Shown piece after piece: positions 10,814 through 20,061 of a stretch of 64,000 nucleotides of DNA. This stretch comes from an uncultured delta proteobacterium. Its GTDB lineage: Bacteria; Desulfobacterota; DSM-4660; Desulfatiglandales; HGW-15. Numbering within the stretch: position 1 is the stretch's first letter; each line of letters begins with the position of its first letter. The stretch is from contig CAVPDE010000029.1 of NCBI GenBank assembly GCA_963702565.1, positions 1,439 to 65,438 on the forward strand. The letters are read 5' to 3'. A model generated the notes under the pieces. The model ran no database searches and was not told the origin of the DNA. It worked only from the letters and a program-made list of their open reading frames with translations. The position numbers were made by a program, and so were the translations under genes.

Positions 10814-10927
10814 ATCCGGTGAAGAATTTATTCCCTCAGGACTTGGTACTGAGGGAGCCATTCTTCAGATTTAAAAACGTCGAATAGGACAAAGTATTTG
10901 CGAATCGAAGCACCAAGGAGGAAGACC

Positions 10928-11959
10928 ATGGCTAAGATGACGATGGTTCAAGCACTCAACCTGGCCCTTCGTCAGGAGATGGAAAAGGACGATCGGGTCA
11001 TCGTCCTTGGAGAGGATGTAGGCCGCGACGGAGGCGTTTTCAGGGTGACCGAGGGTCTGATCGATCAGTTCGGAGAGGAGAGGGTCCTGGACACCCCGCT
11101 TGCGGAGTCGGGCATTGCAGGAATGTCAATCGGCATGGCAATCTACGGTCTCAGGCCTGTTTGTGAGATCCAGTTCTCCGGATTCAGCTATTTCTGCATG
11201 CATCAGATCGAAGCTCACGCTTCGCGCATGAGGTGGCGTTCTCAGGGCAACCTGACGGTGCCCATGGTTCTTCGCTGCCCCTATGGCGGCGGCGTACGGG
11301 CGCTGGAGCACCACTCGGAGAGCCGCGAGGCCTTCTGGGCTCACATCCCTGGGCTGAAGATGGTCATTCCTTCAGGACCGCGAAATGCGAGGGCCCTCAT
11401 GATCAGTGCCATCCGCGACCCTGACCCCGTGATCTTCTATGAAGGCAAAGCTATTTACAGGGCGTTCCGGGAGGAAGTGCCCGGAAGCGGAGGAGACTCT
11501 CCCCATCGGCAAGGCCCAACGGATCCTCGAGGGGTAAGGACCTCACGATGATCTCTTATGGAGCCATGATGCGTCCTACGCTGGAGGCAGCCTGCCTTGC
11601 TCAAGGAAAAGGACGGGGTGGAGGCTGAAGTGATCGATCTGCTCACGATTTCTCCTCTGGATGAGGCGACGCTGGTGGAGTCGGTCAAAAAAACAGGCAA
11701 GGCGGTGATCGTCCATGAAGCCCCTCGGAGTTTCGGCCCAGGGGCGGAGATCGCTTCCCGGCTGATGGAAAAGGCCTTTTTCTATCTGGAAGCACCCATC
11801 GCCCGGGTCACGGGCTTTGATGTCGTCATCCCGTTGTTCAGCAAGGAGCAGGCTTACCTGCCGAATGCGCAGAGAATCATAAGGGCTGCCAGAAAGCTTG
11901 CTGAGTCAATAAAGGAGGAGAGTCATGGCAAGAGCGTTCAAACTGCCGGATCTGGGTGA
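10928..11959 (+). CDS. pdhB: 2-oxoacid dehydrogenase E1 beta (frameshifts ~11480-11600)
   Basis: GEDVGRDGGVFRVT, DTPLAESGI, EHHSES, EVIDLLTISPLD, VHEAP. Confidence 0.88.
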
Positions 11960-13379: not shown

Positions 13380-14849
13380 ATGGTCATGGGTGAGTTGGTG
13401 CAGGAGACACAGGTCCTGGTCATCGGGAGCGGACCGGGCGGGTATGCGGCTGCTTTCAGGGCAGCGGATCTCGGTCTCGAGGTCACTATGGTGGACGTGG
13501 CAGCGAGACCCGGCGGGGAGTGCCTTTACCGTGGGTGCATTCCCTCAAAGACCCTGCTCTACCTGTCGGAGCTTCTCCATGATGCGCATCGCGCCAAAAA
13601 CATGGGCATCACTTTTGGTGAGCCCCAAGTTGACCTTGCGAAAATTCGCGCGTGGAAAGAAGAGGTCATCGACAAGCTGGCCTCAGGGCTGGTGACCCTG
13701 AGCAACAAGAGGGGCGTGCAGCTCATCAAGGGGCGAGCGGTTTTTGAACGCTCCGACAAAGTCCGTCTTCAAGATTCAGAAGTCAGCCACATCAAGTTCC
13801 GCCACGCCATTTTGGCCACAGGGTCTAAACCGGCTCCTTTTCAGGGGATAGCCTTTGAACATGGAAGCCGGATCATGGATTCTGCTGTAGCGCTCGATCT
13901 GGCCGACATCCCCGAGCGGCTTCTCATTCTGGGCGGAGGGTACATCGCCCTGGAGATGGGAACGGTGTATGCCTCTCTGGGAAGCCAGGTGACCCTCGCC
14001 GTTCGAGGAGACCGTCTTCTGCGAGGAGCAGATCCGGATCTTGCTGTTCCGCTCATGAGGCGACTGAAGGAACTTTTCAGTTCAATTCATTTCAATACCA
14101 AAGCCTCATTCATCAAGGAGAAGGAAAACCAGGTCGAAGTGGGCCTGGAGGGAGAAGCGGAAAAGCCCAAGCAAACCTATGACCGTGTGCTCATTGCCAT
14201 GGGCCGCCAGCCCAATACGAAAGAGATCGGACTCGAGAACACCAAGGTGAAGGTGAACGAGAAAGGCTTTGTGGTGGTTGACGAACAGCAGCGCACTTCA
14301 GATCCGAAGATCTTTGCCGTGGGGGATTTGGCAGGCGAACCCATGCTGGCCCACAAGGCGTTTCGAGAAGGGAAGGTGGCTGCTGAGGTCATAGCAGGCC
14401 AGCCTGCGGCTTTTGATGTGCAGGCCATTCCTGCGGTGGTTTACACAGACCCCCAGGTGGCCTGGGCAGGGCTGACAGAAGAGCAAGCCCGAAAACAGCA
14501 GCGACCTGTCCGGATCGAACGATTTCCCTGGAAGTTCTCGAACCGGGCCATTACCATGGGCGCGACAGAGGGGCTCACGAAGATAATCGCCGACCCTGAA
14601 ACCGGAAGAGTGCTGGGAATCGGTATCTCAGGAAGGAGCGCAGAGGGAATGGTTTCCGAAGGAGTCCTGGCCATCGAGATGGGCGCCCTTGTTCAGGACA
14701 TGGGTCTCAGCATTCATCCCCACCCGACGCTTTCAGAGACCGTGGGAGAGGCTGCGGAAATTTTCCTCGGCAGCGTGACCCATCTCCTGCCGAAAAAAAG
14801 AGAAGTGATCGAAGGGCATCGGAAATTGGGGTCAAAGGACCTCGGATAA
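13380..14849 (+). CDS. lpdA: Dihydrolipoyl dehydrogenase E3
   Basis: GSGPGGY, GGECLYRGCIPSK, HPHPTLSE. Confidence 0.96.
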   Translation: MVMGELVQETQVLVIGSGPGGYAAAFRAADLGLEVTMVDVAARPGGECLYRGCIPSKTLLYLSELLHDAHRAKNMGITFGEPQVDLAKIRAWKEEVIDKLASGLVTLSNKRGVQLIKGRAVFERSDKVRLQDSEVSHIKFRHAILATGSKPAPFQGIAFEHGSRIMDSAVALDLADIPERLLILGGGYIALEMGTVYASLGSQVTLAVRGDRLLRGADPDLAVPLMRRLKELFSSIHFNTKASFIKEKENQVEVGLEGEAEKPKQTYDRVLIAMGRQPNTKEIGLENTKVKVNEKGFVVVDEQQRTSDPKIFAVGDLAGEPMLAHKAFREGKVAAEVIAGQPAAFDVQAIPAVVYTDPQVAWAGLTEEQARKQQRPVRIERFPWKFSNRAITMGATEGLTKIIADPETGRVLGIGISGRSAEGMVSEGVLAIEMGALVQDMGLSIHPHPTLSETVGEAAEIFLGSVTHLLPKKREVIEGHRKLGSKDLG

Positions 14850-14868
14850 GGATTGAGGAGAAGGGATC

Positions 14869-16884
14869 ATGAAGAGAATAGTGTGGACAGTATTCTTTTG
14901 GGCACTGGCCTTTATCGGTTCTGTGGCGTTTGCTGCGGAGCAGGGCAAAATCAAGGATACGGAGTCGGCTGCGCACGGCGACGATGCAGCCAAGCATCAG
15001 ATCGTGGACACTTACAAGTTTCCGGGCTTTGAGGTGGTCCAGATCAACCTGCCGGTGCTCTCCCACTATTCCTACATCCTGGTCTCCGGCAAGGAGGCTC
15101 TGATCGTGGATCCGGACCGGGATGTGCAGTTTTACCTGGACTTTGTTTCCAAGAACCGCCTGACGATCAAGGGGGTGTATCTGACTCACTCCCATGCCGA
15201 TTTTGTGGCCGGGCATCTGGAGATCGTCAAGGTGGTTGATTGCCCGATCTATCAGAGCGCCGCCAGCGGCGCGGCCTACAAGATCAACCCCATGAAGGAA
15301 GGCTCGACCTTCAGGATCGGTTCCGCCATTGTGAAAGTCCTGGAGACGCCCGGACACACACCGGACGGGACCTGCGGTCTTGTCTTCAGCGGAGAGGAAG
15401 ACAAGGTGGGCCAGGTCCTCTTTACTGGCGACACTCTTTTTGTCGGCAGCGTCGGGCGTCCGGACCTGCTGGAGGGCAAGATGACGGCTGCGTCGCTCGC
15501 GTCCATGGGTTTTGACACCTGGAATAACAAACTCTCCAAACTGGCCGACTCCGTCATGGTGCTGCCGGCCCATGGAGCGGGCAGCCTCTGCGGGGCGCAC
15601 TTGAGCGACAGTCCCAAGAGCACCATCGGCGCCGAGCGGGCCTCCAACCCCTACTTCATTCTCAAAGGCCGATCGGAGTTCATCGCAGCGGTGTTGAAGG
15701 ATTTGCCGGAGGCGCCTCAGTACTTCAAGCACAATGCCGCCACGAACCGGCAGGGACCGGCCCTGGTCAACTGGGCCGCGCCTCTGCCCGCAGAAGTCAA
15801 GGCCGAGCAAGCGTTGATGGACACGTCGAAGGTCTACGTCGTGGACATTCGGGACTCCTCGGTTTATGCGGCCGAACACATTCCCCGTTCCGTTAATATC
15901 GGAATCCGAGGGAGGTTCGAGACCTGGGTGGGAATCATGGTCCCATGGACCATGCATGAGTCGGACAAACTCGTGGTCCTGGGCAGCAAGGCGGAACTCA
16001 AGGAAGCCCTTTACCGACTCCACCGCATCGGGTACGAAGCCGGCGTGCTCACGCCGGAGAGCTGGAAGGCCGCCAAGCTGCCGACCAAGAAGGTTGACTT
16101 CATCAAGCCTTCCGAGCTTTACAGCCAGATGAAGGCAGGGACCGGCCCGATCATCGTGGACGTGCGGCTGCCCAGCGAATGGATGGGCCTGAGGATAGGG
16201 GAGGTCGTGAACCTTCCCCTGACCCATCTGAGCGAGCTGTCGTCCAAGCTTGATCCGTCTCAGCCTGTCGTGACGGTCTGCAATTCCGCCTACCGGTCGA
16301 GCATGGCCATCGGGCTTTTGGAAGCCAAGGGATTCCAGAAAGTGACCTCCCTTGCCGGAGGCAGCGAGGCGTGGATCGATGCCGGGCTTCCCGTCTATGG
16401 TGCTGAGACGGCAATCCCTGCTGCCGGAGCCGGCCCGGTCAAGCGGGAGATCCGGCTGGCCGATCGGATGTCGGCCGATGAGTTGCGCCGCCTGGCCAAG
16501 GACCTGCCGGGGACCTTCGACCTGGTGGATATCCGGCCCGCGGATCAGTTCAAGGATTATCACATTCCGGGCTCACGGAATGCCGATATCGCCGAAGTGC
16601 TCAGCAACCCGGCCTACCTGACCGGTGCCGGGCCGCTCATCCTCGTTGATCGCGACGGCTCGCTGGCCATGCAGATCGCCGGCATCCTGTCCCAGAAAAC
16701 ACAGAGGACCATCAAGGCCCTGCACGGCGGCCTGGAAGCATACTGGAAGGACAGCGGCTGGAAGGAGTCAGGTAAGGCAGTCGTCGCACCGGCTCCGCCT
16801 GCGCTTCCTGCTGCTCCTGCTAAACCGGAGGCGCCCAAAGCAGAACCGCCAAAGGCTCCCAAGAAGAAATCCGCGGGGTGTTGA
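14869..16884 (+). CDS. Exported MBL-fold (persulfide-dioxygenase-like) protein with three rhodanese domains
   Basis: Sec signal MKRIVW...AFA; THSHADF, PGHT, GDTLFVGSVGRPDL, PAHGAGSLCG; rhodanese VCNSAYRS; Pro/Ala tail ending KKKSAGC. Confidence 0.88.
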   Translation: MKRIVWTVFFWALAFIGSVAFAAEQGKIKDTESAAHGDDAAKHQIVDTYKFPGFEVVQINLPVLSHYSYILVSGKEALIVDPDRDVQFYLDFVSKNRLTIKGVYLTHSHADFVAGHLEIVKVVDCPIYQSAASGAAYKINPMKEGSTFRIGSAIVKVLETPGHTPDGTCGLVFSGEEDKVGQVLFTGDTLFVGSVGRPDLLEGKMTAASLASMGFDTWNNKLSKLADSVMVLPAHGAGSLCGAHLSDSPKSTIGAERASNPYFILKGRSEFIAAVLKDLPEAPQYFKHNAATNRQGPALVNWAAPLPAEVKAEQALMDTSKVYVVDIRDSSVYAAEHIPRSVNIGIRGRFETWVGIMVPWTMHESDKLVVLGSKAELKEALYRLHRIGYEAGVLTPESWKAAKLPTKKVDFIKPSELYSQMKAGTGPIIVDVRLPSEWMGLRIGEVVNLPLTHLSELSSKLDPSQPVVTVCNSAYRSSMAIGLLEAKGFQKVTSLAGGSEAWIDAGLPVYGAETAIPAAGAGPVKREIRLADRMSADELRRLAKDLPGTFDLVDIRPADQFKDYHIPGSRNADIAEVLSNPAYLTGAGPLILVDRDGSLAMQIAGILSQKTQRTIKALHGGLEAYWKDSGWKESGKAVVAPAPPALPAAPAKPEAPKAEPPKAPKKKSAGC

Positions 16885-16886
16885 TC

Positions 16887-17405
16887 ATGAAAGAGTCCAT
16901 GGGACCCAAACCGTACATGAATCCGTACCTGGCAGGGGTGATTCTCGGCCTGACGCTCCTGGCCTCTTATCTTGTGCTCGGAGCCGGGCTCGGGGCATCC
17001 GGCGGCATCGCACGAATCGCCGCTTATCTCGAGGGCGGGCTTGCGCCTTCCCACGTCGGCTCCAGCGAGTACTTCGGGGCATGGGGAAAGGAACCTCTCA
17101 ATTACTACCTTGTCTTCATGTTCTTCGGCGTGTTTGCGGGAGGCTTGGTCTCCGCAGTCCTAAGCCGAAGATTGAAATTTCAGGTCGAGCGAGGCCTAAA
17201 GGCCCCAAGACAATTTCGCCTCGTGCTGGCCTTGGCCGGGGGCGTGCTGGCCGGTTTCGCGAGCCGTTTGGCCCAGGGCTGCACCTCGGGACAGGCTCTG
17301 TCCGGAAGCGCCATGCTCCTCTCAGGCAGCCTGGTCTTCTTGATCTGCGTCTTTGCCGGGGGGTATGCGGCGGCATGGTTCGTAAGGAGGCAGTGGCATG
17401 ATTAG
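16887..17405 (+). CDS. YeeE/YedE-family sulfur transporter half (GCTSG type)
   Basis: NPYLAGV, GLGASG, RLAQGCTSG. Confidence 0.88.
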   Translation: MKESMGPKPYMNPYLAGVILGLTLLASYLVLGAGLGASGGIARIAAYLEGGLAPSHVGSSEYFGAWGKEPLNYYLVFMFFGVFAGGLVSAVLSRRLKFQVERGLKAPRQFRLVLALAGGVLAGFASRLAQGCTSGQALSGSAMLLSGSLVFLICVFAGGYAAAWFVRRQWHD

Positions 17406-19401
17406 CACGTTCTTCGGAGTGGATGCGCTGTCTTCGTCGGCCGCCATGGCGGCCGCGTTCCTGATCGGACTGGCCTTCGGATTTTCCCTGGAACAGGCGG
17501 GTTTCGGCAGTTCCCGCCGGTTGGCGGGCATCTTCTACTTCCGGGATATGGCGGTACTGAAGGTCATGTTCACGGCGCTGCTCGTGGCCATGCTGGGGCT
17601 CCAGTATGCGAGCGGACTGGGGCTGATCACCGAAGATCAGCTCTTTTTCATGCCCAGCATCTACGGACCGCAGATCGTGGGCGGATTGATTTTCGGAGTG
17701 GGCTTTGTCATGGGCGCCTGGTGCCCGGGCACGGCTGCGGTCGGTCTGGCTTCAGGCCGTATGGACGCTCTGGTGTTCCTCGCCGGAGCGGGTCTGGGGA
17801 GCGTTTTCTTCAACGAACTCTTCGGCGTTTTAAGAGGCCTCTACACCTGGGGAGACAGGGGCGTTCGGTTTGCCTGGCAGGACCTGGGCCTGTCGGCTGT
17901 GGGATTCGGCTTCCTGCTGGTGGCGGTGGCGCTGGTCCTGTTTTGGGGAGCCGAGTACCTGGAGAAGCGCAGGGCAGTCGGCGGTGAGTATTGGCGAAGC
18001 CCCTTTCTGCGGTCCTTCAGCTCTGTCATGATCCTTCTCGCCCTTGGCCTGATGGCCATGGAGGGAAGGGTTGCGGGCGACAGGCCTGCAGGCCTTCAGA
18101 TAAGCACCTCCGCCATGTTGGCGGAGATTGAATCGGCAAAGGACCACATGGAGCCGGAAGAACTGGCCGACCGGCTGATGCGGGGAGAGCCGGGGCTCAT
18201 GGCGGTCGACATCCGTCCGGCAGAGGAGTATGCGGAGTTTCACATTCGCGGCGCAGTCAACATCTCCATGGCCGATTTGCCGGAGGCCCTTGCGGGCAGG
18301 GAGAACAAGGGCATTATCGTCCTTTATTCCAACGGCATGACCCACCCGGCCCAGGCGCGTGACGCCCTGTTCCGAATGGGTTTCACGAACGTGTACCTGC
18401 TCACGGACGGCCTTGTGGGGTTTATCGACCGGATTCTGAAGCCTGCTTCCCTCAGGACAGAACCGCTGTCGGCGGAGCAGAGGGCCAGAATCAACTCGTG
18501 GCGGCAGTGCTTCCTCGGTTCGGAAAAACCACAGCCGGCTCAAGCCGGGCCGGAAGAGTCTCTGGCCGTCTCTCAACCTGTTGCACCCAAGTGGCCGGGC
18601 CTGGTGGAGCCTGCGTGGCTGGCCGAGAACCTCGGCAATCGTGAAGTCCGGGTCATCGAAGTTCGGGCTCAAGCCCAGTACAACAGCGGCCACATCCCAG
18701 GTTCCGTGTGCGTTTCCCATGACAACTTCCGTGGCGTGGTGGGCGGCGTCTCCTCCATGCTGCAGCCCCCTGAGCTGCTGGCTTGGCACATGTCCCTCAT
18801 GGGAATCCGGCCCACGGACAGGGTGATCCTCGTTCCCGATGACAAACCCCATGATGCGACCTTGGTGGCCATGGCATTTGCGCGTCTAGGCCATACACGT
18901 TTCGGGATCCTCAACGGAGGCTTCCCGCGCTGGATCCATGAAAAGCGTCCTGTCACGACGGAACTGCCTCAGGTTGAGAAGTCCCAATACCCGGTTCCCT
19001 CTCCCGATGTCTTTACGGTGACGCACAAGGAAATCATGGAGGTCCTCAAGGCTGCGGATCATGTCATCCTTGATGTCCGTCCAACGGAATACTACACGGG
19101 GGAGAAGGTGGATGAAGCCCGGGGCGGGCACATCCCCGGAGCCAAGAGCCGGCCCTACACAGAAGACCTTTTCAAGTACGGCAAGGTCACCCTGCTAAAG
19201 CCGTTGGAGGAACTCGCCAATGCTTACACTTCCCTCGTGCCCAATAAGCAGGCGACGGTGATCATCCACTGCCGCACCGGCCATCAGGCCAGCCAGACCT
19301 TTTTTGTGATGCGATACCTGCTGGGCTATGAGAGGGTGTTGTGGTATGACGCAGGCTGGTCTGAGTGGGCGGCGAGAAGCGAATTGCCCGTTGAGAAGTA
19401 G
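17398..19401 (+). CDS. YeeE/YedE half (CPGT type) fused to three rhodanese/sulfurtransferase domains
   Basis: GLAFGFSLEQAGF, GAWCPGT; GHIPGS, GHIPGA, active-site HCRTGHQA, YDAGWSEW. Confidence 0.88.
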   Translation: MISTFFGVDALSSSAAMAAAFLIGLAFGFSLEQAGFGSSRRLAGIFYFRDMAVLKVMFTALLVAMLGLQYASGLGLITEDQLFFMPSIYGPQIVGGLIFGVGFVMGAWCPGTAAVGLASGRMDALVFLAGAGLGSVFFNELFGVLRGLYTWGDRGVRFAWQDLGLSAVGFGFLLVAVALVLFWGAEYLEKRRAVGGEYWRSPFLRSFSSVMILLALGLMAMEGRVAGDRPAGLQISTSAMLAEIESAKDHMEPEELADRLMRGEPGLMAVDIRPAEEYAEFHIRGAVNISMADLPEALAGRENKGIIVLYSNGMTHPAQARDALFRMGFTNVYLLTDGLVGFIDRILKPASLRTEPLSAEQRARINSWRQCFLGSEKPQPAQAGPEESLAVSQPVAPKWPGLVEPAWLAENLGNREVRVIEVRAQAQYNSGHIPGSVCVSHDNFRGVVGGVSSMLQPPELLAWHMSLMGIRPTDRVILVPDDKPHDATLVAMAFARLGHTRFGILNGGFPRWIHEKRPVTTELPQVEKSQYPVPSPDVFTVTHKEIMEVLKAADHVILDVRPTEYYTGEKVDEARGGHIPGAKSRPYTEDLFKYGKVTLLKPLEELANAYTSLVPNKQATVIIHCRTGHQASQTFFVMRYLLGYERVLWYDAGWSEWAARSELPVEK

Positions 19402-19527
19402 CAGGTTGCTGAAAAACGCCCATCTACGGCGTTGCCCTCACCCCTCGTCGTTGCGATGTACTGGACTGTACGTCTCACTCCTCGGGATTTCGGGTGCCTT
19501 GTATCTGGGCGTTTTTGAGCAACCTGC
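19401..19527. mobile_element. MITE-like element (127 bp)
   Basis: 22-bp terminal inverted repeats GCAGGTTGCTGAAAAACGCCCA / TGGGCGTTTTTGAGCAACCTGC (1 mismatch); no credible internal gene. Confidence 0.75.
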
Positions 19528-19593
19528 CAGCAGTGCCTTTCTCGGCACACTGATAATGCAAAGAGCGTTCGGAAGATTTTTTGAGAGGGGGAA

Positions 19594-20061
19594 ATGGCTG
19601 AAATCCGTTGGGCAATGATCCCCGGCGATCTCATCGCGGTTAGAAGTCTTTTCCAGGAGTACGCCGATTCTCTGGATTTCGAGCTGGACTTCCAGGATTT
19701 CAGAGAGGAGATGGAAACCCTGCCGGGAAAATACGCCCCGCCTCTGGGATCTATCCTTTTGGCAAGAGAAAACGGGGAGACGGTGGGCTGTGTCGCAGTG
19801 CGGCCCCTGGGTGAAGACATCTGCGAGATGAAACGTCTCTACGTGAAACCGGCCTGCCGCGGCAAAAGACTGGGCCGGGAACTCGCCCTGGCGATCATCG
19901 AAGAGGCCAAGAGGCTCGGGTACAAGGCGATGAGGCTGGACACGGTCGTTGCCATGAAAGAGGCGTCGGCCCTTTACCGCACTCTCGGATTCCAAACCAT
20001 CGATGCCTATTGCTACAACCCCCTGCCCGACGCCATGTACTTCGAACTGAAATTAGCGTAG
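19594..20061 (+). CDS. GNAT-family N-acetyltransferase
   Basis: EMKRLYVKPACRGKRLGR, MRLDT, LYRTLGF. Confidence 0.92.
   Translation: MAEIRWAMIPGDLIAVRSLFQEYADSLDFELDFQDFREEMETLPGKYAPPLGSILLARENGETVGCVAVRPLGEDICEMKRLYVKPACRGKRLGRELALAIIEEAKRLGYKAMRLDTVVAMKEASALYRTLGFQTIDAYCYNPLPDAMYFELKLA

Follow-up and report, generated by a model that had tools for sequence, protein, structure and literature searches.

What would a persulfide dioxygenase (PDO) do on the outer side of the cytoplasmic membrane? To our knowledge, both PDOs and the mechanism of CstB have been described only in the cytoplasm and in mitochondria, where the sulfur is carried by glutathione, CoA or bacillithiol. The question is raised by three adjoining genes, here ORF1, ORF2 and ORF3, on a 64,000-nt stretch of DNA (the window) from an uncultured delta proteobacterium (Desulfobacterota, Desulfatiglandales, HGW-15; assembly GCA_963702565.1, contig CAVPDE010000029.1), whose genome holds one copy of this module. 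We propose that the three genes form a self-contained module that would handle sulfane sulfur on the outer face of the cytoplasmic membrane, with O2-dependent formation of thiosulfate and uptake through a split YeeE channel, and we regard the chances of this whole reading being right as about even. An earlier reading of the letters (the original prediction) had instead described a trans-envelope relay in an anaerobe, with the terminal Cys of ORF1 as a swinging persulfide carrier that loads the channel. The open reading frames, domains and motifs that it named (HxHADF, GAGSLCG, GCTSG, CPGT, CRTGHQ and KKKSAGC) are all present; Table 1 gives the features of the module.

Table 1. Features of the three-gene module and of the repeat at its 3' end (positions are those of the window)
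Feature	Position	Strand	Description
ORF1	14869-16884	+	671 aa; predicted exported CstB-type persulfide dioxygenase-rhodanese with carrier-like domain and Cys tail
Signal peptide, residues 1-22	14869..14934	+	hydrophobic segment; cleavage site, read by eye, between MKRIVWTVFFWALAFIGSVAFA and AEQ
Motif I-K-D-x-E-S-A-x-H-G, residues 28-37	14950..14979	+	directly after signal peptide; D30, E32, S33, H36 invariant
Persulfide dioxygenase (MBL) domain	15046..15768	+	H107, H109, D111, H163, D188, R197, H235 invariant
CstB-specific mobile loop P233-S246	15565..15606	+	G238, C241-G242, L245 invariant
Middle pseudo-rhodanese domain	15796..16068	+	no Cys; first Pfam rhodanese stretch; aligns to middle domain of 3tp9 and 3r2u
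Catalytic rhodanese domain	16096..16398	+	C471 (codon 16279-16281), R433, R476 invariant
Third rhodanese-like domain	16450..16752	+	no catalytic Cys (D594-R-D-G-S); Pfam stretch; many invariant residues
Pro/Ala-rich tether, about 40 residues	16756..16860	+	predicted disordered; sequence unconserved
Terminal K-K-K-S-A-G-C	16861..16881	+	Cys671 last residue, then TGA; reads ...PKAPKKKSAGC
ORF2	16887 (ATG) or 16878 (GTG) to 17405	+	C-terminal half of split YeeE
ORF3	17398-19401	+	667 aa; N-terminal YeeE half and rhodanese domains
ORF3 membrane part, N-terminal YeeE half	17398..18072	+	C109 in WCPGT (codon 17722-17724); helices 5 (167-191) and 6 (202-225) extra
ORF3 first rhodanese domain	18130..18432	+	Tyr310 replaces catalytic Cys (YSNGMTH)
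ORF3 tandem, thiosulfate-sulfurtransferase-like rhodanese (two-domain)	18595..19398	+	C625 in HCRTGHQ (codon 19270-19272)
126-nt hairpin repeat	19402-19527	+	directly 3' of ORF3 stop; 3' end of cluster

A CstB-type core, a predicted signal peptide and a tethered cysteine

In Pfam, ORF1 matches Lactamase_B with 48.7 bits (cut-off 22.7) and, in three stretches, Rhodanese (PF00581) with 109.2 bits. Its best solved relatives are 3tp9 (9e-57) and 3r2u, the CstB of S. aureus (2e-46), aligned over residues 64-496 or beyond, and S. aureus CstB is, as judged by these alignments, the closest solved relative of known function. We judged invariance on an alignment of 25 homologues with 61-94% identity (alignment A1), and matched residues to CstB through the 3r2u alignment with a 24-residue tag offset (chain numbering minus 24). 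The residues of the MBL domain align to CstB H56, H58, H119, D145 and R154, and the set that forms the mononuclear His2Asp iron site is found as H107, H163 and D188, invariant in the 25 homologues (CstB H56, H119 and D145). The motifs HSHADF (H107-F112), GAGSLCG (C241) and VCNSAYRS (C471) are present. The mobile loop with C241 matches CstB G198, C201-G202 and L205, and in an AlphaFold2 model its residues 237-243 have a predicted local distance difference test score (pLDDT) below 50. By alignment, C471, R433 and R476 are the counterparts of CstB C408, R370 and R413, C471 being the sole rhodanese catalytic Cys of ORF1. In all, every residue found essential in the CstB study has an invariant counterpart in ORF1: H107, H109, H163, D188, R197, G238, C241, G242, L245, R433, C471 and R476.

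How CstB uses these residues is described in a 2026 preprint (PMC12934615; papers given by PMC number are cited here from excerpts). In CstB, small persulfides are not bound at the iron; the enzyme forms a persulfide on its own Cys201, in the mobile Cys-Gly loop, and oxidises this with Fe(II) and O2 to the S-sulfonate. The loop then swings to the persulfidated rhodanese Cys408, steered by Arg370 and Arg413, and thiosulfate is released (PMC12934615). The same source calls the self-S-sulfonated C201-G202 loop a 'glutathione mimic', and states that CstB needs an external persulfide donor, for which any small thiol persulfide serves in the cytoplasm. Since the ORF1 core appears to carry the complete O2-dependent catalytic set of CstB, O2- and iron-dependent formation of thiosulfate is predicted for it.

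ORF1 shares with CstB the order of persulfide dioxygenase, pseudo-rhodanese and rhodanese, as well as the iron triad, the Cys-Gly loop including the hinge Gly, the Cys of the rhodanese and the two steering Arg. It differs from CstB in its export, in an extra N-terminal motif, in a fourth domain that is rhodanese-like and Cys-less, and in a tether that ends in Cys, whereas CstB is cytoplasmic and fed by small-molecule persulfides. The only hydrophobic segment of ORF1 spans residues 4-22 (Kyte-Doolittle 2.11) and lies within a predicted signal peptide. The original prediction had noted it, and it stood up to comparison: of the 113 homologues whose N-terminus is complete, 110 begin with a segment like a signal peptide. 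A few relatives have twin-arginine (Tat) signals instead, with RRRFLR in one homologue. The motif I-K-D-x-E-S-A-x-H-G is not found in cytoplasmic CstB and falls in a region of low confidence (residues 18-40 have a pLDDT below 50); our guesses at its role are a metal site or a pro-peptide. Among the loci described below, Desulfomonile-type exported CstB-like proteins (L028, L034 and L037) have twin-arginine signals and no Cys tail.

Downstream of the CstB-like core, Asp594 occupies the catalytic Cys position of the third rhodanese-like domain. The end of this domain could be located in 109 of 120 homologues; in these, the stretch from there to the C-terminus is 39-60 residues long (median 45) and contains 26% Pro and 22.5% Ala. 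The terminal Cys, the key element of the carrier idea, was found in all of the 120 best database homologues; the last seven residues among the 109 are KKKSAGC in 74, RKKSAGC in 15 and KRKSAGC in 7. The tail also behaves in the model as a swinging arm would: residues 630-671 are predicted to be disordered, with a pLDDT of 30-38 and no rise in confidence at the C-terminus of the monomer (25-row alignment). For this reason, we read the tail as a flexible tether, undocked in the monomer model.

The stop codon after Cys671 deserved attention, as it is a TGA followed by a Ser codon and a second TGA, and the host genome has SelB. Selenocysteine read-through of this TGA (...GC-U-S) was considered and rejected: 12 of the 64 genome loci with the tail use TAA or TAG (TGA 52, TAA 7, TAG 5), and nothing is conserved in frame downstream of the stop in these 64 loci. 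TGA is also the commonest stop of ORF2 (40/60) and ORF3 (37/55). Because the stop codons vary and the downstream sequence is unconserved, Cys671 is taken as the true C-terminus.

A Cys at the end of a mobile peptide recalls SoxY, the periplasmic carrier of the Sox system, which has a C-terminal GGCGG arm and SoxZ as a partner. The resemblance is a working one: in both, a periplasmic Cys on a mobile C-terminal peptide could carry sulfur between enzyme sites. In ORF1, however, the domain has a rhodanese-like fold, the motif is K-K-S-A-G-C with Cys last, the disordered spacer is much longer, and there is neither a SoxZ partner nor any further conserved neighbour. Thus, the ORF1 tail protein is not a member of the SoxY family.

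The split channel and the side of its rhodanese domains

ORF2 and ORF3 correspond to the two halves of YeeE. ORF2 (172 aa) matches the Pfam family Sulf_transp (PF04143) with 66.4 bits (cut-off 27) over profile positions 177-309 of 310, and has four transmembrane segments, with a K+R-rich N-terminus, middle loop and C-terminus. Its profile aligns to residues 244-329 of S. thermophila YeeE (E 0.011) and places GCTSG, with C132 (codon 17280-17282), on the GGCNIG motif, the Cys of which is C293 by the assignment of the SoxT paper. ORF3 matches Sulf_transp over profile positions 4-208 (53.3 bits, cut-off 27) and Rhodanese in three stretches (164.1 bits). By hydropathy and in the AlphaFold2 model it has six helices, two beyond the N-terminal half of YeeE. 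Its C109 is invariant in 28 of 28 sequences, and C132 of ORF2 is likewise invariant. As a side observation, the long periplasmic loop of most ORF2 homologues (alignment A2) contains one more Cys (consensus ...CVxPxHT...), which the ORF2 of the window lacks (AAYLEGGLAPSHVG).

The crystal structure of YeeE has the N-terminus outside and the C-terminus inside, with a reversal of topology between the halves at helix H7; C22 and C91 are found towards the cytoplasm and C293 towards the periplasm (PMC7449682). PmpB is the N-terminal half, with a Cys at the C91 position, and PmpA the C-terminal half, with a Cys at the C293 position (PMC11582611). Our locus has the same division, with adjacent genes for the C- and N-terminal halves, each with a conserved Cys at one of these two positions. 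ORF2 also fits the size of PmpA and PmpB (about 130-140 aa, four helices each); ORF3 does not, with its 667 aa, six helices and three rhodaneses. Both ORF2 and ORF3 fall far short of the cut-offs for TsuA in NCBIfam (NF041049 and NF052577), with 27.9 bits against 645 and 35 bits against 400. Transferring the YeeE topology to the two halves, C132 of ORF2 is predicted to face out and C109 of ORF3 to face in. The split YedE1E2 imports zero-valent sulfur, and both conserved Cys are required for it (PMC10812762).

It is over the side on which the ORF3 rhodanese domains lie that our reading departs from the original prediction, which had counted three of them and whose trans-envelope relay would put these sulfurtransferases on the inner side. 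All three domains are present, but the first has Tyr and no catalytic Cys, and the catalytic Cys is found only in the last domain (C625, invariant in 28 of 28 sequences); in the module as a whole, two of the six rhodanese domains have one (C471 of ORF1 and C625 of ORF3). Their inner placement is not supported. An N-terminus outside, followed by six membrane crossings, puts the C-terminal domains outside. The charge bias agrees: averaged over 27 ORF3 homologues, the two loops predicted to be inside contain 3.26 and 3.11 K+R, the segments predicted to be outside 0.22, 0.30 and 1.22, and the stretch directly behind the sixth helix 1.44, together with 4.63 acidic residues. Only an orientation with the rhodaneses outside is compatible with this pattern.

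Natural split variants point the same way. The 55 ORF3 homologues comprise 27 with three rhodaneses, 11 with one, 13 split after the fifth helix and 4 that look truncated. The 13 split forms (a Planctomycetota clade that includes a metagenome-assembled genome, MAG, labelled Kuenenia; L065-L077, L080) consist of a membrane protein of 197-206 aa and a separate gene. In nine of the ten split loci that we inspected, this gene encodes a rhodanese protein of 470-492 aa with its own single N-terminal hydrophobic helix; for the tenth (L066), the frame taken was a spurious overlapping one. The first rhodanese of this clade has a Cys (CSNGMTH) in place of the Tyr of the fused forms. Since Foldseek, run with the whole ORF3 model, listed only rhodaneses and left the membrane part unaligned to YeeE, the topology argument is built on the Pfam ranges, the charge bias and the split variants. 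With these in agreement, we are confident, short of certainty, that the ORF3 rhodanese domains lie in the periplasm.

The relay of the original prediction, with the periplasmic tail Cys loading the channel and the YeeE-fused rhodaneses receiving the sulfur in the cytoplasm, fits the list of parts, and full-length YeeE has known partners in the cytoplasm, such as YeeD (PMC13047784). The six helices, the charge bias and the hydrophobic helix of the split-variant proteins all speak against it, and we consider it very unlikely. No cytoplasmic acceptor is encoded within the three-gene module. In our preferred arrangement, the conserved thiols predicted to be periplasmic are C241, C471 and C671 of ORF1, C132 of ORF2 and C625 of ORF3, and C109 of ORF3 is predicted to be cytoplasmic.

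The soluble part of ORF3 has known relatives. Its tandem pair gives profile matches to 1uar (2.4e-47), 1e0c and SseA-type enzymes, and in Foldseek it reaches template modelling scores of 0.86-0.89 to 1uar and 1e0c, with EanB and YnjE as three-domain matches. YnjE of E. coli, itself a periplasmic protein, and EanB resemble the whole soluble part over about 450-475 aligned columns (E 1e-17 to 1e-19) and also have the catalytic Cys in the last domain; unlike them, ORF3 is anchored in the membrane through its fusion to a YeeE half.

Conservation of the three genes and a proposed route for sulfur

A scan of species-representative genomes gave 80 loci, 78 of them with a complete 3' end. A terminal Cys is encoded in 64 of the 78, and 58 of these 64 continue with ORF2 and ORF3, so that the same three-gene order is found in 58 of the 80 loci, in several phyla; in another two, ORF2 follows and the contig ends. 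The remaining four (L022, L027, L049 and L056) are followed by neither YeeE half. Thus, the YeeE halves adjoin 60 of the 64 tail-bearing loci versus none of the 14 without a tail, and the linkage between tail and channel on which the carrier idea leans is borne out. The 14 tail-less relatives comprise L064, three Tat-exported forms and CstB-like proteins of the cytoplasm with about 470 aa. In a metagenome scan (alignment A5), the order was kept in 31 of 32 loci, all of the fused type, and the exception ends at a contig edge. The locus arrangement is not due to chance. No other flanking gene is conserved among the 60 loci, the best being common to 7 that all belong to one clade; the three genes are therefore the whole conserved unit. 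Two of the loci without adjoining YeeE genes, L022 and L027, encode shorter, two-rhodanese CstB-like forms (549 and 556 aa, one of them from strain NaphS2) with a basic tail that ends in GC.

These elements suggest a route. The outward rhodanese of ORF3 (C625) would collect sulfane sulfur from polysulfide or thiosulfate as a persulfide. Cys671, on its tether, would act as a built-in thiol that takes the place of glutathione, CoA or bacillithiol persulfides: it would pick up the sulfane sulfur, most plausibly from Cys625 of the membrane-anchored rhodanese, and deliver it to C241 and C471, the tether being long enough to reach any site of the complex. With O2, the ORF1 core would convert two persulfide sulfurs to thiosulfate, as CstB does, and the thiosulfate, or sulfane sulfur passed from Cys to Cys, would enter through the split YeeE. 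The periplasm is not known to have such small-thiol pools. As CstB needs an external donor, Cys671 as the persulfide donor is the simplest reading, and the carrier idea of the original prediction is plausible to this extent. Whatever in this mechanism goes beyond homology, we infer from sequence.

The same chain of Cys, with one on each side of the membrane, could also be run in the outward direction, sulfane sulfur of the cytoplasm passing from C109 to C132, to the outer rhodanese and to the tail, and being oxidised outside to thiosulfate as a means of detoxification. Operons of the type yedE1-yedE2-pdo have been attributed to sulfide detoxification (cited in PMC10812762), which would favour such a flow. 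In that same source, however, YedE1E2 stimulated zero-valent sulfur import, but not its export, in E. coli, and full-length YeeE is an importer (PMC7449682). We find an outward flow quite unlikely.

The last part of ORF1 is not confined to the fused protein. With residues 515-671 as the query, a library search gave 410 cluster representatives (E up to 0.001); a terminal Cys is present in 74 of the 150 best. Among the matches are pieces of the fused protein, but also complete small proteins in which a signal peptide, a Cys-less rhodanese-like domain, a Pro/Ala spacer and K-K-[KR]-[SN]-A-G-C follow one another. Alignment A4 combines 25 stand-alone proteins with the domain from the window. They have 140-225 aa (P0142, P0149, P0160, P0166, P0177, P0182, P0185 and others), and one of them, P0182, is a hypothetical protein of the isolate Fundidesulfovibrio butyratiphilus, encoded on a 2.4-Mb contig. 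There is no stand-alone copy in the 80 genome loci or in the host genome. When P0182 was compared with 401 genomes of the host's phylum, six fused forms were found and otherwise only weak matches.

A locus in another genome of the host's phylum, L138 (348-5916 of G091:C102), bears on the chemistry of the channel. There, split YeeE halves directly follow a psrABC-like operon, which encodes a molybdopterin oxidoreductase with a Tat signal, a 4Fe-4S subunit and a membrane subunit similar to NrfD; the locus also encodes an exported rhodanese-like protein of 190 aa that ends in ...NPGGCG. The gene for the N-terminal YeeE half has an in-frame TGA at the Cys of CPGT (...SGL-U-PGT...) and continues to a full-length protein, which makes it a likely selenoprotein variant of the channel. 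A YeeE-family selenoprotein with selenocysteine in the motif of the other half (GUxSG) is listed in a 2026 review (PMC13188914). Exchange of Cys and selenocysteine at both channel positions argues for chemistry, and not only hydrogen bonding, at these residues.

We put forward, tentatively and with the chances rather against it, that the Cys-less rhodanese-like domain with its Pro/Ala tether and K-K-S-A-G-C end constitutes an unrecognised family of periplasmic sulfur carriers, free or fused to an enzyme. Such a carrier would hold a persulfide or thiosulfonate on its terminal Cys and dock at the split YeeE, where sulfur would be handed over covalently from C671 to C132 to C109 and not as a free ion; the selenocysteine at the channel position in L138 would fit such a hand-over. 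The polybasic stretch and terminal Cys could instead serve to anchor or sort ORF1, keeping it at the membrane through lipidation or a disulfide to a partner, and not as a catalytic carrier. Invariant last residues after a variable spacer are indeed what sorting signals look like, and basic residues would be expected to favour an acidic membrane surface. But no conserved fourth gene that could encode a processing enzyme lies near the module, the same tail is found on small stand-alone proteins with otherwise only a rhodanese-like domain, and the apparent selenocysteine of the L138 channel points to thiol chemistry. An anchoring role seems scarcely probable.

Selenium itself could be the substrate, with the YedE-type channel and the rhodaneses binding it for uptake or detoxification and the terminal Cys carrying it as a selenotrisulfide. 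The module gives matches to selenium-related models, all below their cut-offs: selen_YedE_FdhT (39.6 bits, cut-off 350), rhodanese-related (seleno)protein (63.4, cut-off 115) and ExtH (53.5, cut-off 200). Besides the SelB of the host, SelD was found in all five related carriers of the host's phylum. Co-occurrence in five of five does not discriminate within this phylum, however, and in two of five carriers outside this phylum no SelD match exceeds the cut-off, among them a 5.8-Mb record titled 'chromosome', in which the best match has 35 bits against a cut-off of 125. The persulfide machinery of CstB is, moreover, fully conserved. We judge a selenium function extremely unlikely.

The module is carried by Planctomycetota, Verrucomicrobiota, Lentisphaerota, Kiritimatiellales, several orders of Desulfobacterota, Hydrogenedentota, Auribacterota, Riflebacteria, several candidate phyla and the Kuenenia MAG, judging by the record titles. 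Most carriers come from sediments. The host genome has DsrA, DsrB, one gene of the heme-copper oxidase family and a weak cytochrome bd match (38.7 bits). DsrA and a cytochrome bd-family match are present in all five other carriers of the host's phylum (the bd match of G009 is truncated), and a heme-copper oxidase match in one of the five and in none of the other four. These traits fit carriers of this phylum that produce sulfide and meet O2 occasionally, in settings rich in sulfide and at times micro-oxic, and a protective or scavenging role of the module at oxic-sulfidic boundaries.

The same host traits may keep alive a role without O2, in which the periplasmic rhodaneses and the Cys tail shuttle polysulfide sulfur to YeeE for disproportionation, reduction or assimilation, and the MBL domain serves as a hydrolase or a binding site. 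The Sud protein shuttles polysulfide sulfur to polysulfide reductase in a comparable way. Apart from the DsrA of the host and its five relatives and the four relatives without a heme-copper oxidase match, such a role would be favoured by L138, with its psrABC-like molybdoenzyme operon directly before the split YeeE and its exported rhodanese-like protein ending in ...GGCG, and by the exported, Cys-less rhodanese and tail proteins that exist without an MBL domain. Against it, the residues of the O2 chemistry of CstB are invariant across phyla, which would be unexpected if that chemistry had been lost, and the cytochrome bd-family matches in five of five carriers show that O2 is encountered. The O2-independent use in an anaerobe that the original prediction had suggested is not indicated by a core that keeps every O2-dependent CstB residue, and we hold it to be unlikely.

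Several points weigh against our proposal of O2-dependent thiosulfate formation outside the membrane followed by uptake. A thiosulfate-forming enzyme beside a rhodanese of the thiosulfate-cleaving type could be futile. The outer vestibule of full-length YeeE is positively charged (PMC7449682) and would repel the KKK stretch of the tail. The AlphaFold2 monomer of ORF1 gave no sign of tail docking, and that S-A-G-C is strictly invariant suggests that a specific site recognises it. The ORF3 topology is a prediction, with a pLDDT of 45-67 over much of residues 1-160. Finally, hosts with DsrAB, of which four of five related carriers lack a heme-copper oxidase match, are an odd fit for an O2-dependent enzyme, and so is the anammox MAG labelled Kuenenia (L074).

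Known systems and the surroundings of the module

Most parts of the module are already known, namely CstB, the split YeeE beside a PDO and multi-domain rhodaneses. PmpA/PmpB, which are the YedE1/YedE2 of Serratia and Cupriavidus, resemble ORF2/ORF3 in that two adjoining genes encode the YeeE halves with one conserved Cys each. They often adjoin a cytoplasmic PDO (blh, pdo2), and the genomic association with a persulfide dioxygenase is common to both (PMC10812762). ORF3 differs from PmpB in two more helices and about 440 residues of predicted periplasmic rhodanese, and the module differs from PmpA/PmpB in that its partner dioxygenase is predicted to lie outside the cell membrane and the gene for the C-terminal half comes first. 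With YeeE/TsuA and YeeD/TsuB, the module shares a PF04143 channel and a thiol protein as an obligate partner. Unlike them, it has a split channel in place of a single chain of nine helices, encodes no TusA-like cytoplasmic partner, and has its partners outside the membrane. The Rho-PDO fusion of cable bacteria (PMC13047784), which we considered as a possible precedent, is a different protein with an N-terminal rhodanese. No NCBIfam model reaches its cut-off for any of ORF1-ORF3, so that none belongs to a curated equivalog.

In the literature covered, to which subscription journals do not belong, we found no description of an exported CstB-like enzyme, of a K-K-S-A-G-C tail or of a fusion between a YeeE half and rhodaneses. 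What seems to be new is an exported CstB-type enzyme, a carrier-like domain with a tether that ends in Cys, and a channel half fused to outward rhodaneses, and of these the tethered-Cys carrier has the best chance of being new in kind. The ORF1 family appears to perform CstB chemistry outside the membrane by means of its own tethered thiol, wired to a sulfur channel. If so, the module would represent an unrecognised route of polysulfide and thiosulfate turnover at oxic-sulfidic interfaces and a natural test of covalent sulfur passage by YeeE-type channels, and it would provide a new carrier module with which to annotate many 'hypothetical' exported rhodanese-like proteins.

Within the window, the stop codon of ORF1 (TGA, 16882-16884) lies 2 nt upstream of the ATG of ORF2, or overlaps its GTG start by 7 nt, the ATG at 16887 being probably the start rather than the GTG at 16878; ORF2 and ORF3 overlap by 8 nt. 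Judging by this spacing and overlap, the three genes are tightly and translationally coupled. Contigs from RNA libraries of three studies span all three genes and bridge both gene junctions. They are weak evidence of transcription, as DNA carry-over is possible, and they give no level, strand or transcript ends. A search of Rfam gave no match at E up to 1 across 14400-19800.

The 126-nt element at the 3' end of the cluster is a perfect-stem hairpin that folds at -64.6 kcal/mol (z -7.2) and has no match in Rfam. The host genome holds 40 near-full-length copies of it (87-100% identity) and three short partial matches, and it looks like an intergenic element of the REP/MITE type. A terminator-like site at 19489-19509 falls inside the repeat, which is possibly a transcript-stabilising terminator. 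In four RNA-library runs, the repeat is covered 10-50 times as deeply as the flanking genes, and many contigs match the repeat alone.

On the 5' side, an operon for a 2-oxoacid dehydrogenase (E1, E2 and E3), on the same strand, ends 19 nt upstream of ORF1, and a scan for sigma-70-like promoters found no site between the two. The E1 beta gene of this operon is present as two open reading frames in different frames (10898-11551 and 11597-11959), which suggests a frameshift, due either to a sequencing error or to a broken gene.

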